Positions 37,825 to 49,675 of a stretch of 64,000 nt of DNA are shown one piece after another. Below the pieces are notes generated by a model. The model was not told the DNA's origin and searched no databases. It worked only from the letters and a program-made list of their open reading frames with translations. Source of the stretch: an uncultured Thermoplasmata archaeon (GTDB lineage Archaea > Thermoplasmatota > Thermoplasmata > RBG-16-68-12); contig CAVYJM010000012.1 in assembly GCA_963768855.1 (NCBI GenBank), positions 1-64,000 of the forward strand. The letters are read 5' to 3'. The position numbers and the translations under genes were made by a program. Every line of letters starts with the position of its first letter. Positions within the stretch are counted from its first letter, which is position 1.

Positions 37825-39280
37825 ATGGACAGCGGTCGAGTGCGCGCAATCCTCGAAGGGATCGAAGGCCACCAGGAGGCGTCCATGTCCTCGGAGGAAC
37901 GGGGTGTCCTCGTGACGCAAGGCCTGGTGAAGAGCGTGGACGCTCCCACGCGGGACCGGTGGACCGCGGGCGTCGCCAACCTCGTCGCCTTGCGGGACCG
38001 GGTCCGCGATCTGTCGCGGCAGGCGCTCGCGACTCCGGGACCGGACGCGCCGCCCGAGCTGCGGCAGATGATCGCCAGCCTCGAGGAACTCACCCGGGAG
38101 AAGTCGTCCCTCGGCGCCCTCGTCTGGAACGGGCCCACGCAGGAGTACGTCCAGGTGACGCTCGCGGGCCGGGGCGTCCTGGAGGACCTCAAGACCTGGG
38201 AGAAACGGCTCTCGGGTCGGGACTTCGCCCAGTTTCAGCAGGAGCTGGGGACGTACCGCGCCGGGCTCGTCGACCTCGTGAACCGCGCCTCGCTCTTGAA
38301 CCGCAGCCTGACCCTGGACGAGCAGAGCCGCCTGGACGACGAGTGGGCCGCCGCGCCCATGACGAACGTGGACGTCCGCTTTGCCTCGATGATCCTCGCG
38401 AAGCGTCCCGTGAACCCGGGGATGCTCGTCTCGGAGTTCCAGTGGTTCAATCATGACACGAACTGGGGGACCTTCAGTCCCGAGGACCGCCTCGTCGCCT
38501 CCGCGATCCTGACCTCCCTTCCGTGGGACCCGGCGATCGTCCGGAGCACGTTCGAGCGGATCCGCATCGCGCTCCAGTACCACGGGATCTCTCCGGAGGA
38601 CCGGGTCATCGTCGCCGCGTCCCTCGCGGACCTCCAGGAGGGCTGGTGGGAGCAGGTCTTCTCCCGGATTGACGAGGTCAAGAAGCAGCGTCCCGCTCTG
38701 AACTCCCTCCTCGATCTCCGCGCTCGCCCGCTCGCCCTACCCCGTCGCGGAAGCGCTCGGCCGCTTCGACGGCGCGTTGTCGGGCATGGCTGCGAAGGGC
38801 TTCAAGGATGGAATCCAGTTGGACATCGCGGCCTCCCTCCTTGCGTCATCCCAAGTCCCTCAGGAAGCCCTGGTCGACCGTTTCGCCTACACGTTGTCGA
38901 ACGTGCAGGGCGCGTTCGATCCCCCGTTCGCGCCCGCCGCGATGCTCGCCACGAACCCGCTCGAGCCGAACGAGGCGATCGACGTCTTCCGGGACTGCAT
39001 CGGGGCCGTGACCCGGATGAGCTTCTTCGACCTCACCCTCGAGATCGAGGAGCTCGCCCTGATCATGAGCTACGGCGTCGCTCCCCTCGGGACGGGCTAC
39101 CTGGGCGGGAACCTGCCCCCCGGGGCCGCGCTGCAACCGCCCGCCGCCGCAATGGCCGCAGCCGTGACGGGCCTCGGGACGTCGTGGTACGTCTGGCACA
39201 ACTACTTCGTGTACCGCCCGATCGGCCGATACATCGCGACCCATCCGGTCCACGTGCACACCGTGGCGGCGTTCGGCTAG
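37825..39280 (+). CDS. helical-repeat hypothetical protein (about 484 aa), frameshifted at ~38710
   Basis: Repeated EDR(L/V)(V/I)ASAILT / DIAASLLAS helices; removing one base near 38712 joins the 37825 frame to track ORF 38777-39280 (ISALARSPYPVAEALGRFDGALSGMAAKG). Confidence 0.65.
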
Positions 39281-43104: not shown

Positions 43105-45768
43105 ATGCTCGCGCGAAGTCAGACTCGGACCGCAACGAGCCCGATACGGTGGCTCTTGTTGCTCTTCATCGTGTTCGTCCTGGCGCTCAGCGTAACACCT
43201 CCCTCTCGCGGGGAGATCCCAACCATGCAGCCGAATCCGGACGCATCGCGGACGGTCACATGGGTCATGAACGACTCGGCGGGGCTGAAGACCGCCCAGA
43301 ACATCTCCTTCGTAGGCGGGAACGCCACGCTGGCCTGGACGCCGGTCCTACTGAACTGGTCGCAGGGTTCGGATTTCGAGGCGAACGTGTCCGGGTCGCT
43401 CGATCCGAACGTGACCGCGGACGCGAGCGGGTTGGCCCTTGGGGCGAACCTCAGCAACCGCCTCATGGACGGGGACTTCGGGTCCTCCGGAGTCTGGGCC
43501 TACGCGAACGGAACCGCGAACAACACCACGGCTGAGTGGATCCCGTATCTTGGGATGGCGCGGCTCAACCACTCCTCGCCGACGACGCAGACTCTCTGGG
43601 ACTCCTTTGCGAACATCGCCGCGAACTGGACACCGACTTCGTCGCTCCAGTCGACCAGCCACGTCTACCAGGCCGCGGGTGCGATGGGCGACTTCGTGAA
43701 CGTAACGGCGGGGGTGGATCAGTTTGCCGGCGCCCTGAATGCGGGAATCATAAACTGGTCTGGATACGATCAGCTGAGGATCATGATTCATCTCAACGCC
43801 TCCGCGCCGGCAGCGTTCAACATGTCGGCCCTGGACAGCGGCTTTCACACCCAAACGACCCAGCCGGTTGCGTTGGCGGCCGATTGGAACACCGTCACGG
43901 TGGATCTCGACCAGCTCGGACCGAACCGGTCGGCGCTCGCCTTCCTGAGATTCCGAATCGTCGGGCTTGGCGGCCAAGCGTTGCCGCCTCTCAACGTGCT
44001 CTTCCTAGATGCCGAGATCGGTCGGGCGAAGGTGGCTGACACGACGGCCAGCGTAAGCCAGATGTTCACCAAGACGTTCACGGCGCCTTCCGCGGGGAGT
44101 GCCTACTTGTCCTTCGACTGGACGATCGAGAACCAGACCGGCGTGGCCAGTTCCATCATGAGCGCGACTCTGGACGGCCCGTCGGGGCAGTTCAGTACGA
44201 GCCTCTTGTGGAGGTTCCCATCCGAGTGGCACCACCTCGTCGCGGACGTCTCGCCCCAGGTGGCCGAGGCCGGGCCCGTACAGCCTGAGCTTCAGCCTGC
44301 GGGTCGAGCTCGACAACATCACCCCTTCGAATGTGACGGCCTACGTCGACAACGCGGCCTTCGTATACCCCGACCGCCACAACGGCACATACCTTTCCCA
44401 GCCCCTCAGCTTCGGCGCCGATTCGCGATATTTGCGTCTCACCTGGTTGGATGTGCTGCCCTCGTCCGAGACGACGGCTCGCCTCGCGTTCCAGACAGGC
44501 AACACCACGTCCGCTTGGGGGAGCTGGCACGAGTTCGCGACCCCCGGGACCTACGGCCTTGCGGAGGGAGCGGTCTGGTTCCGCGTTCGTGCGGATCTCA
44601 ACACCACGAACGCCAGTGTCTCACCAATCCTGTCCGCGCTCTCCGTTTCAGCGGAGCACCGGATCGCACACGGGGTCATCGTATCGGAGACGTACTCCGC
44701 CGATCCGGACTTCCTCCGGTGGCGGAGCTTCAACGCCTCTTGGGAGGCCGGCCAGTTGAATTCGGTCAACTTTTGGGTCGGCAACGGGAGCTACTGGACC
44801 GCCGTCACGCCGGGCGCCGATCTGGGCTTCGTCACGGGCCCCCGGCTCGCATGGAAGGCCGTCCTGACCACGTTCGACACCCTGCAGACTCCCGCGTTGG
44901 CGGACTTCGCGGTCACGTACGAATTCCTCGGCGCTCCGGTGTCGATCTCGATTGTCGCCGGGTGGCCCGCTCAATGTCACGCAGGGCCAGAGCGTTGCGT
45001 TCTCCGCTCGAGTTCTCGATGCGGGGGCCCACGCGGTCCCCACCGCTTCCATCGTTTGGTCGACGACAGATCCGATGGGTCACGTCTACAACAACGGTAC
45101 GTACGTCGCCGGATCGATCGGTGACTTCTACGTGAACGCCACGGTCTCTGGACTCACGTCGGTGACCCAGTCGGTCGTCGTCCATGTCTCGGCAGGCAAC
45201 ATCCCCGTGGCGGGCTGGTTGGTGGGGAGTCTGGCCGTATGTCCTCCTGGTGGCCGCAGCCGCGATGGTCGGGTTCGCCCTGTACCAGCTCGCGATCGTT
45301 CGGGTCTACCCCATCGACGATGTCTTCCTGATCGCAAAGGACGGACGGCTGATCGTGCACAACACGCGACGCATGCGCGCCGACCGGGACGAGGACATCC
45401 TGTCCGGCATGCTCACCGCGATCATGTCGTTCCTTCGGGACCAGGATCCCGAGGAGAACGGGGAGCTGAAACGGTTCGAAGTCGGAGGCAAAACGACCTT
45501 GCTCGAGCGGGGTCCCCACGTCTACCTTACCGCCATCTACTCCGGGCGCGTCCCGCGCTGGGCCGGGAAGGACCTGCATCGCTTCATGGGGGACTTGGAG
45601 GATCATTTCGGCGACGCGTTCGCGAACTGGTCGGGCTCCCCGGAAGACCTCCATGGCCTCAAGGAGTTCATGGGCAGGTTCGTCTCCCACGTGAGGTATC
45701 GCGGCGACCCCCCGCTCGAGCCGACGCGCAAGCTGAACGCGGCTCAGCGCGGGACGAACAACAGGTAG
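43105..45768 (+). CDS. single-pass surface protein (about 886 aa) with cytoplasmic longin-like domain; three +1 frameshifts (~44276, ~44952, ~45205)
   Basis: Track ORFs 43093, 44333, 44952 and 45184 join seamlessly if one base is removed at each site (GPYSLSFSLRVEL; SISLSPGGPLNV; NIPWRAGWWGVWPY). Signal peptide, NxT/S-rich beta domains, Ig-like unit, TM 45232-45300, then IDDVFLIAKDGRLIVH...DEDILSGMLTAIMSFLRD...DLEDHFGDAFANWSG. Confidence 0.72.
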
Positions 45769-47901: not shown

Positions 47902-49666
47902 TCAGCGCGCCTCCAGCTTCTTGAAGTCCTCGTCCATCATCGTCAGCGTTTTCTCGAGCTCCTGGTCGAACTTCTCCTCGTACTTCACCCGGGTCAGGAG
48001 CTCCCGCGACTTGACGGAGGCGATGTCCTTGACCGGCACGTCCAGGGAGGCGGCTTTGCGGCCGAGGTCCGCGAACTTCTTGATCGAGGAGATCAGCTTG
48101 AACTGCCGCTCGGGAGGGCAGAACGTGTCCACGGGGTGGTACGCGTTCTGCTGCAGGAAGATCTCCCGGACCATCCGCGCCACCTCGAGGGTGAGTTGCT
48201 GCTCGGGGGGGAGCGCGTCCGCACCGACCAGCCGCACGATCTCCTCGAGCTCGGCCTCTTCTTGCAGGGTGCGCTGCGCCCACGAGCGCAGCTTGGGCCA
48301 CTCCTCGTTGACCTTCGTCCGGAACCACTCCTCGAGCTGCGGACCGTACAGGCTGTAGGAGGTGAGCCAGTTGATCGCAGGGAAGTGCCTCCGCGCGCGA
48401 AGGGCCGTGTCGAGGGCCCAGAACACCTTGACGATGCGGAGCGTCCCCTGGGTCACCGGCTCGGAGAAGTCGCCTCCGCTCGGGGACACGGCCCCGACGA
48501 CGCTGACGCTCCCTTCCCGGCCATTCAAGGTGGTCACGCGACCGGCTCGCTCGTAGAACTCGCTCAACCTGGCAGACAGATACGCCGGGAACCCTTCCTC
48601 GCCCGGCATCTCCTCGAGTCGGCTCGAGATCTCACGCATCGCCTCGGCCCACCGCGAGGTGGAGTCGGCCATGAGTGCGACGTTGTAGCCCATATCGCGG
48701 TAGTATTCCGCCAGGGTCATGCCGGTGTACACGGACGCTTCCCGTGCGGCGACGGGCATGTTACTCGTGTTCGCGATGAGGGCCATGCGATCCATGAGCG
48801 GAGCCCCCGTATACGGGTCCTCGAGCTTGGGGAACGTGGTCAGGACCTCCGTCATCTCGTTGCCGCGCTCGCCGCAGCCGATGTAGATGACCACCTGGGC
48901 GTCGCACCACTTGCTCAGTTGCTGCTCGCTCACCGTCTTCCCCGTCCCGAAGCCGCCGGGGATTGCGGCCGTGCCGCCCTTCGCGAGCGGGAACAGGAAG
49001 TCCATGACCCGCTGTCCCGTGATGAGCGGCACGGTAGGCATGAGCCGCTCCTTCGAGGGCCGGGGCCGGCGCACGGGCCACTCCTGCATCATCATGATCT
49101 TGCGGCCGTCGCTCAGCTCGACGACCGTCTCGTCGACCTTCATCTTCCCGGAGCGCACCCGGATGACCTTGCCGGACACATCCGGAGGGACCATGATCCG
49201 GTGCTCGACGTTCTTGGCCTCCTGCACGGTCCCGAGGACCTGGCCGCCCCGCACCGCGTCGCCTTCCTTGGCGAGGGGCTTGAAGTCCCAGAGTTTCTCG
49301 CGGCTCAGGCCCGGGGCGCGCACGCCGCGCAAGATGAAGTCGCCCATGACCTTCTGCAGGACGGGCAGCGGTCTCTGGACGCCGTCGTAGATGTTGCCGA
49401 GGAGCCCGGGTCCGAGCTCCACGGTCAGGGGCTTCCCGGAGTCCACCACGGGCTCGCCCGGGGCGGATGCCCGCGGTTTCCTCGTAGACCTGGATGACCG
49501 TCTTCTCGCCGCGGAGCTGGATGACCTCGCCCATCAGCTTCTCGGTGCCGACGTACATCACGTCGTACATCCGGGGCCGCAGGCCCGTCGCGGTCACGAC
49601 CGGACCCGCGACCCGCTGAATCTCCCCCGTCGCTTTCCCATGCTCCACCGTCGCGCTCAGCGCCAC
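47902..49666 (-). CDS. atpA: A/V-type ATP synthase subunit A (frameshift at 49457-49459)
   Basis: N-terminus (RVAGPVV...[12 protein letters not shown]) in track ORF 48761-49666, remainder ([38 protein letters not shown]) in 47902-49449; removing one G gives 587 aa. Confidence 0.95.
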
Positions 49667-49675
49667 TTCCTCACC

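Follow-up and report, generated by a model that had tools for sequence, protein, structure and literature searches.

A putative longin-tailed surface receptor of a Thermoplasmata archaeon and its genomic coupling to Ras-like GTPases

Does a stretch of archaeal DNA that reads as four separate open reading frames (ORFs) encode one large surface receptor, and what might the cytoplasmic end of such a protein do? This question is raised by positions 43105 to 45768 on the forward strand of a 64,000-nucleotide (nt) stretch, hereafter the window, of contig CAVYJM010000012.1 from an uncultured soil Thermoplasmata archaeon (GenBank assembly GCA_963768855.1). Overall, the best explanation of our observations is probably that a single gene encodes a receptor with a longin-fold tail, which acts as a platform for two small GTPases encoded next to it. 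Expanded sets of small GTPases with longin or Roadblock partners are usually taken as a hallmark of Asgard archaea and as a stepping stone to eukaryotic membrane traffic.

Four coding pieces form one gene

Three-frame translation and the ORF list place four coding pieces in frames 1, 2, 3, and 1. Frame 1 extends from 43105 to ~44275, frame 2 continues to ~44956, frame 3 covers ~44952 to ~45215, and frame 1 resumes from ~45223 to 45768. No piece contains a stop in its own frame, and a codon-position hidden Markov model (HMM), trained on the long ORFs of the host genome, predicts frame switches at 44279/80, 44968/69, and 45228/29. The shift is of an identical type at all three sites (+1, one extra base each), which is why the fourth piece is back in frame 1. 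These positions agree within 20 bases with those given in an earlier note on this DNA, which had proposed that the four ORFs fuse once single bases are dropped at ~44276, ~44952, and ~45205.

The pieces are colinear with residues 19-421, 415-654, 659-745, and 754-914 of an intact ortholog (L017), and a single frame of 899 to 932 residues spans all four in six relatives of the same genus. Because the four pieces are colinear in one frame in these six relatives, we regard it as confirmed that 43105-45768 is one gene for a protein of ~885 residues. About 35 additional full-length homologs were recovered, each with one uninterrupted frame, and relatives that were checked for separate genes had one open frame instead in every case examined.

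A sequon-rich ectodomain and a single membrane helix

The translation predicts a receptor-like type I membrane glycoprotein, with an N-terminal signal peptide, a single transmembrane helix, and N-X-S/T sequons ahead of that helix (Table 1). The signal peptide was called from the translation pattern and the orthologs, not by a dedicated predictor. We count 29 sequons in the 701-residue ectodomain versus 7.5 expected, and 1 in the following 182 residues; the window ectodomain has no cysteines.

The ectodomain was modeled on the intact ortholog L025, which is 42 to 49% identical to the window pieces, with 31 aligned sequences including those pieces. The model is all-beta with a predicted local distance difference test (pLDDT) score of 92.4. 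Its residues 120-280 match carbohydrate-binding modules (CBMs) and similar jelly-rolls (Z 12 to 16; 1wky, 2c4x, 1v0a, and 2zew), and matches reaching residues 374-393 point to further beta-sandwich units beyond the jelly-roll. Pfam gave no CBM match in the ectodomain pieces. Residues 583-683, equivalent to the frame 3 piece of the window, match LigA Big_2, Big_2-CBM56, and SbsC S-layer immunoglobulin (Ig) domains at Z 11 to 12.5 and a root mean square deviation of 1.5 to 2.2 A. From these data the protein is likely to comprise, in order, a signal peptide, three or four CBM-like jelly-rolls, a Big_2-like Ig domain, the transmembrane helix, and a 125-residue longin-fold tail. The earlier note had outlined much the same architecture (signal peptide, sequon-rich beta ectodomain ending in an Ig-like unit, one transmembrane helix, and a cytoplasmic domain), and the sequon counts and the models of ectodomain and tail bear it out.

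Table 1. Positions of the receptor gene's parts, its frame breaks, and the two upstream GTPase genes in the window
Feature	Position	Strand	Remarks
Predicted signal peptide	43105..43212	+	Basic N-region, hydrophobic stretch WLLLLFIVFVLALSV, then ...SRG/E; pattern common to ~35 orthologs
Ectodomain piece A, frame 1	43213..44275	+	N-terminal beta domains including a CBM-like jelly-roll; 33-47% identical to orthologs
Ectodomain piece B, frame 2	44276..44956	+	Further beta-sandwich domains; 34-46% identical to orthologs, all relatives reading it in one frame with piece A
Ectodomain piece C, frame 3	44952..45215	+	Ig-like (Big_2-type) domain; weak Pfam Big_1 match, E 0.046
Predicted single transmembrane helix WGVWPYVLLVAAAAMVGFALYQLAIV	45223..45300	+	From translation; paralogs hydrophobic at the same place directly before the tail
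Predicted cytoplasmic longin-fold domain	45313..45687	+	E-E-H-E-E-E-H plus C-terminal helix (AlphaFold2 model; E, strand; H, helix); disordered C-terminus up to stop at 45768
Frame break 1, +1	44270..44279	+	Within GGCCGGGCCCGTAC; ortholog high-scoring segment pairs (HSPs) go from frame 1 to frame 2; HMM switch 44279/80
Frame break 2, +1	44952..44968	+	Boundary of last jelly-roll and Ig-like domain; ortholog HSPs, HMM
Frame break 3, +1	45206..45228	+	Between Ig-like domain and transmembrane helix; ortholog HSPs, HMM
Predicted GTPase G1, Ras/Rab-like, 187 residues	41724..42287	+	Pfam Ras 3e-30, Roc 5e-27; no C-terminal Cys
Predicted GTPase G2, Ras/Rab-like, 183 residues	42367..42918	+	Pfam Ras 2.7e-32; paralog of G1, ~57% identity

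Fold of the cytoplasmic tail

The tail was modeled with AlphaFold2 (AF2) from an alignment (A1) of 18 tails taken from the window, its orthologs, and paralogs of the same genome, giving a pLDDT of 77 and a predicted template modeling score (pTM) of 0.72. The elements of the model are E7-14, E19-24, H33-49, E59-63, E66-72, E76-82, H90-110, H116-119, and H122-131. In alignment A1, Arg72 and Asp32/Asp34 of the tail vary hardly at all, which makes them candidates for contact or finger residues. We took as Roadblock the order alpha-beta-beta-alpha-beta-beta-beta with a packed N-terminal helix, and as longin the order beta1-beta2-alpha1-beta3-beta4-beta5-alpha2(-alpha3). In the model, strand beta1 begins six residues past the transmembrane helix, the N-terminal helix of Roadblock is absent, and an extra C-terminal helix is present. 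The top VIA-align matches are AP2 sigma (Z 12.0), VAMP7 (11.7), Sec22 (11.7), synbindin (11.2), and sedlin (10.8), with AP mu (between 10 and 12), a Lokiarchaeal Roadblock-Longin protein (10.6), and Mon1-Ccz1 (10.3) among the further matches; the longin matches align 116 to 133 residues. Foldseek likewise places AP sigma (E 2.6e-5) and zeta-COP at the top. The predicted structure thus supports assigning the tail to the longin fold within the Roadblock/longin superfamily, as a member without a family model yet.

Some results pull the other way. The longin assignment depends on a model of moderate confidence, the window tail matches no Pfam or NCBIfam model, longin types included, in searches extended to E 5, and the sole trace at the sequence level is to Robl_LC7, weak in 4 of 18 paralogs (best E 8.7e-4). 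The tail might then be better named a Roadblock/LC7 domain of the MglB type, with the function of GTPase-activating protein (GAP) or guanine nucleotide exchange factor (GEF) of an MglA-like GTPase. This naming would also suit the Roadblock protein CvnB5, which is among the matches of the tail profile to PDB sequences (all at E ~0.3; CvnB5 at 0.32), and the position of the tail gene beside Ras-like GTPases, as for mglB. We nonetheless consider it unlikely: Roadblock and MglB structures match at Z 7.8 to 8.4 over 92 to 105 residues, so that longin structures fit better and over more of the chain; the model combines the missing N-terminal helix with the longin-type C-terminal one; and the neighboring GTPases, in which the Asp of G3 is retained (WDIMGE), are placed by their scores with Ras/Rab and not with MglA. 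Since both folds belong to one superfamily, the choice is mostly a question of naming. The longin-like tail of the earlier note accordingly stands as regards the predicted fold and the closest structures; its sequence-level counterpart does not, as the trace leads only to Roadblock/LC7 and the window's own tail has no Robl_LC7 (PF03259) match. One lead comes from the Atlas, in which Fuz_longin_1 is found on 22% of the members of one look-alike cluster (score 0.87).

Distribution of the tail family

A profile search with the tail matched 5778 cluster representatives among 1.84 billion, 4065 of them at E <= 1e-10. In proteins 130 to 2400 residues long, the domain almost invariably occupies the C-terminus or a position close to it, and sampled proteins carry CARDB, Big_9, cadherin-like, DUF5915, and DUF835 domains, some of them with several transmembrane helices. 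Source annotations read "hypothetical protein" or name DUF5915 only; none names the tail. The tail family is therefore a large, unnamed archaeal family at the end of many different membrane proteins, and the suggestion of the earlier note that it might cap many different Thermoplasmatota surface proteins is confirmed by these varied partner domains.

The host genome alone has 18 tail matches, on type I proteins of 359 to 1642 residues, on proteins with multiple transmembrane helices, and twice in a frame of 2443 residues. This last frame (C18:~136500-143800; L005) has no predicted transmembrane helix and carries two internal longin-like copies; its homologs of 2100 to 2400 residues, some with CARDB, TPR, or DUF5915, are the top matches of the family profile. 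In an even sample of the phylum, the domain is present in 27 of 151 genomes (20 of 95 genera) at 1 to 28 copies each; the 15 family f8 genomes and many others of that sample gave no match. The relatives that bear names are Thermoplasmata metagenome-assembled genomes from soil, sediment, and groundwater, e.g., "Euryarchaeota archaeon RBG_16_67_27." Promethearchaeota (Asgard) clusters are among the Atlas look-alikes, which we note as a lead only, and one Thermoplasmatota cluster from an Atlas shape search with the tail model joins a response-regulator receiver domain to the tail fold.

Among orthologs of the window protein, tails are 63 to 87% identical versus 33 to 47% for ectodomains. Such a gap would be expected if the inner partner is conserved and the outer face changes fast.

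Coupling of the tail to Ras-like GTPases

Upstream of the receptor lie two genes, G1 and G2, whose products are by their motifs and profile scores predicted Ras-superfamily small GTPases. Their Pfam Ras scores are 105 and 112 bits against a cutoff of 21.6, and GxxxxGKT, WDIMGE, NKxD, and SAK are conserved in both. In both, the G3 motif in switch II reads WDIMGE, with Glu at the usual position of the catalytic Gln; W68-D69-I70-M71-G72-E73 is invariant over 23 G1 orthologs, and the motif does not vary among the orthologs of G2 either (alignment A2, 26 orthologs). Because Glu replaces the catalytic Gln, a partner may be needed for hydrolysis; bacterial Group 1 Rup proteins also lack this Gln, and a residue supplied by a partner has been proposed for them (PMC4316618). 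Altogether, the host genome encodes 19 Ras/Rab-like small GTPases, three of them in tandem (C7:106429-108242) and others at, e.g., C3:7229, C6:448472, and C6:467780. So many are unusual in an archaeon outside the Asgard group. An earlier survey credited Thermoplasmatales with one Rab-like gene, and in the literature searched non-Asgard archaea are given about one per genome (PMC4915359).

Genomic and phyletic evidence strongly supports a tight coupling of the tail to these Ras-like GTPases. At least 26 species representatives share the gene order G1-G2-receptor, which converges with atpD; the arrangement persists where tail identity has fallen to 41%, and also in lineages in which the ectodomain has grown to 1400-1700 residues. 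Elsewhere, a GTPase gene adjoins unrelated tail paralogs in several orientations, in some groups directly after the tail gene, both in the host (C6:703 kb and C6:749 kb) and in relatives (L084 and L086-88 among them). Comparing the positions of the two families across genomes brings out many more such pairs. Across the 151 genomes, 26 have both families, 1 has the tail only (a weak match), 2 have the GTPase only (weak matches), and 122 have neither; copy numbers are correlated among genomes with both (rho = 0.64).

We also predicted the complex of two tails with G2, which reached a median score of 0.49 (0.80, 0.49, and 0.36) versus 0.00 for three controls, with contact agreement of at least 67% between runs and a partner pLDDT of at least 75. 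This lends weak support to binding. In the benchmark for such predictions, 58 of 80 solved complexes passed, as did 2 of 110 mismatches; among passes with scores of 0.60 or lower were only 7 of the 80, along with both mismatches.

From this evidence we lean toward the tail, probably as a dimer, being a membrane-tethered platform that binds and regulates G1/G2. Several observations count against this. In the range of the complex score of 0.49, false passes outnumber true ones unless the proposed pairing was probable beforehand, and the score may reflect likeness to solved complexes of longin or Roadblock domains with GTPases. The Fisher P of 9e-26 for the phyletic pattern is overstated, since related genomes are not independent, though the pattern repeats over many families. 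Only 3 of the 15 tail genes of the host genome have a GTPase neighbor, and with gaps of 80 and 187 nt among G1, G2, and the receptor, their spacing is no proof of an operon.

The absence of a nearby GTPase for the other 12 host tail genes and the spacing of 80 to 187 nt would equally suit a tail that is a general cytoplasmic module for pairing, anchoring, or sorting (clustering, quality control), with GTPase adjacency as inherited synteny, as would the presence of the tail on DUF835 proteins, on those with multiple transmembrane helices, and on the 2443-residue frame that has no predicted transmembrane helix. We attach a low probability to this alternative. The co-occurrence of both families is near perfect, GTPases stand beside tail genes in several unrelated paralog groups and in varied orientation, and the complex prediction passed, albeit weakly; moreover, longin and Roadblock domains of solved structure are known to serve GTPases as platforms (PMC10933270).

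If the tail is a GTPase platform, it would be tethered on the membrane's inner side and probably form pairs, as other longin and Roadblock domains do. The paired tail would bind G1 and/or G2 and govern their location or nucleotide state, whether as a recruitment site, as an exchange factor, or as a GAP. More speculatively, and at present rather doubtfully, an outside ligand, possibly a glycan, might alter tail pairing through the ectodomain and switch the GTPases, resulting in outside-in signaling or local positioning of surface proteins; in the alternative flow, the GTPases would position or sort surface proteins. On the scale of the genome, we put forward only tentatively that soil Thermoplasmata run a eukaryote-style system in which ~18 receptors per genome use longin platforms to recruit or switch ~19 Rab/Ras-like GTPases. 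Should the tail indeed handle GTPases, it would provide a simple, bench-testable receptor-to-GTPase switch in a prokaryote.

Two variations of the locus were seen in relatives. Tandem receptor copies lie between the GTPases and atpD in four genomes of the same genus (L028, L031, L036, and L045), the second tail being 47 to 48% identical. In seven distant Thermoplasmata (L044, L047, L048, L051, L052, L058, and L064), the syntenic receptor of 1400 to 1700 residues has an approximately doubled ectodomain, with the GTPase pair and the tail kept.

Origin of the frame breaks

The three +1 breaks most likely reflect single-base insertion errors of the assembly, and the organism probably makes the full-length protein. 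The host assembly consists of 24 contigs totaling 2.87 Mb (completeness 93.6%, contamination 7.7%), and the frame HMM detects 138 candidate breaks genome-wide, ~5 per 100 kb on every large contig. A candidate is a same-strand frame switch without a stop within 60 nt, as found for 138 out of 1047 direct switches. We ran Pfam on five candidates, the first five of ten drawn at random: two split a standard single-gene architecture (PLDc_2/PLDc_2 and Peptidase_M20/M20_dimer), a third probably marks the normal junction of two genes, and the other two lack Pfam domains. Broken ordinary genes include a PLD-like gene at C11:297157 and an M20 peptidase gene at C6:721386.

A comparable break lies 4 kb downstream of the receptor in atpA, the gene for catalytic subunit A of the A-type ATP synthase (47908-49675, reverse strand), where a +1 shift at ~49460 falls inside the N-terminal barrel, ATP-synt_ab_N. 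Positions 1-59 of the 69 of this domain are encoded in 49466-49675, and the Xtn, nucleotide-binding, and C-terminal domains are in another frame in 47908-49458. This break is almost certainly an assembly error, and it brings the number of verified +1 breaks to four within 5.2 kb. Because essential atpA is broken alike and every piece of the receptor gene looks like live coding sequence, we favor poor local polishing over a pseudogene. A homology-based census of frameshifts from relatives' loci was noisy (antisense ORFs and gene junctions), and only the three receptor sites and the one in atpA were confirmed by it.

The case for assembly error has its weak sides. Homopolymer and k-mer enrichment was not detected at the genome-wide candidates, which are thus without a known sequencing-error signature. 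The raw +1:-1 ratio of 78:7 in the strict set is inflated by a detector that favors +1 events, because the stop density off frame is ~0.011 versus 0.033 per codon, so that stops are about three times rarer in the frame entered through an insertion. We dropped this ratio as proof of technical bias for that reason; after correction it is roughly 2-4:1, a weak point only. Finally, there are three breaks in 2.7 kb, where the genome average (138 candidates over 2.39 Mb of coding sequence) predicts 0.15.

This local excess is what genuine frameshifts in a recently inactivated pseudogene, a copy of a receptor intact in relatives, would lead one to expect. Surface-protein genes turn over fast, some relatives have two tandem copies of which one could be dispensable, and the only runs at the break sites are short ones of G/C (GGGCCC, GCCGGG, and GGGG), long homopolymers being absent. 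We nevertheless judge a pseudogene distinctly improbable, as the pieces are free of stops or other damage with an intact coding signature in each shifted frame, the tail is still 83 to 87% identical to its nearest relatives, and the same type of break in atpA and in ordinary enzyme genes argues for a general assembly problem, locally concentrated. An intact copy from the same species was sought by exact-protein look-up and by a metagenome pattern scan across site 1, with no hit in the former and 0 matches in the latter; the closest tail relative, P0172, shares 92% tail identity yet 79 to 82% DNA identity.

All three shifts having a common direction and returning to the original frame could also recall programmed +1 ribosomal frameshifting or transcript slippage that sets the level of full-length receptor. 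This is extremely improbable given an uninterrupted frame in more than 35 relatives, sites that lack both a common motif and a stop in the old frame (after site 1, frame 1 remains open for another 860 nt), and unrelated genes broken in the same manner. With assembly error as the preferred cause, the split ORFs of this assembly, atpA included, call for merging before annotation. Within 38400-39270 (forward strand), a further +1 switch is possible at ~38714, separating two coding parts of the gene downstream of a SelO-like kinase gene, where either a break or a gene junction may be present.

Comparison with known systems

Eukaryotes, Asgard archaea, and bacteria all have well-known GTPase platforms of the longin/Roadblock type (PMC10933270, PMC4316618, bioRxiv 10.1101/2020.10.19.343400). 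PADLOC, Pfam, and NCBIfam gave no usable match for the tail and the ectodomain pieces, and a look for a role in defense turned up nothing.

Among the closest known systems, eukaryotic and Asgard longin platforms (TRAPP Bet5/Trs23, Mon1-Ccz1, the FLCN/NPRL2 GAP complexes, SRalpha SRX-SRbeta, and Loki 8yqg) share the predicted fold and topology of the tail, and the genomic and phyletic coupling to Ras-superfamily GTPases adds to the likeness. The window tail differs in having no significant match to the Pfam families of these proteins and in its placement at the C-terminus of a predicted type I protein, behind a large, putatively glycosylated ectodomain, whereas known longins are soluble, fused to a GTPase, or N-terminal in tail-anchored SNAREs. 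Its host, unlike that of the Asgard longins, is a Thermoplasmata archaeon. With the longin SNAREs themselves (VAMP7, Sec22, and Ykt6), of which VAMP7 and Sec22 are among the best structural matches, the tail shares a membrane-tethered longin facing the cytoplasm; it differs in the absence of a SNARE coiled coil, in the order (ectodomain, transmembrane helix, and longin versus longin, SNARE, and transmembrane helix), and in the large extracellular part.

Among bacterial systems, MglB-MglA and the conservon (CvnA, CvnB, and CvnD) likewise place a small GTPase beside a regulator of the Roadblock superfamily, and the weak Robl_LC7 and CvnB5 matches of the tail family are in line with this. In the actinobacterial conservon, a membrane sensor, the sensor kinase CvnA, belongs to the module (PMC4316618). 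Here, by comparison, sensor and platform would be in one polypeptide, the predicted topology is longin-like, and the GTPases belong to the Ras/Rab-like and not the MglA type, their G3 Asp being intact. Bacterial Group 1 Rup systems also pair a Gln-less GTPase with a membrane protein that has an unnamed cytoplasmic domain (Wuichet and Sogaard-Andersen 2014, PMC4316618), but their order from inside to outside is domain, transmembrane helix, and OmpA, and their neighborhoods contain a coiled-coil protein and a cyclic di-GMP or kinase output. As a lead only, the Atlas shape search with the tail model gave a TM of 0.67 for a bacterial cluster of the OmpA family (Pseudomonadota, 6862 members), which may represent this Rup-linked protein.

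Our literature search, which was not exhaustive, returned no description of longin-fold tails on large surface receptors that are multiplied together with Ras-like GTPases in a non-Asgard archaeon. Known, then, are the longin/Roadblock platforms for GTPases; not described in the literature searched, and in that sense new, is a longin-fold domain as the cytoplasmic end of large archaeal surface receptors. If true, this arrangement would offer a second, independent view of how longin-GTPase pairs came to work at membranes, and would connect the cell surface with a network of GTPases through a longin-GTPase partnership well outside the lineage leading to eukaryotes.

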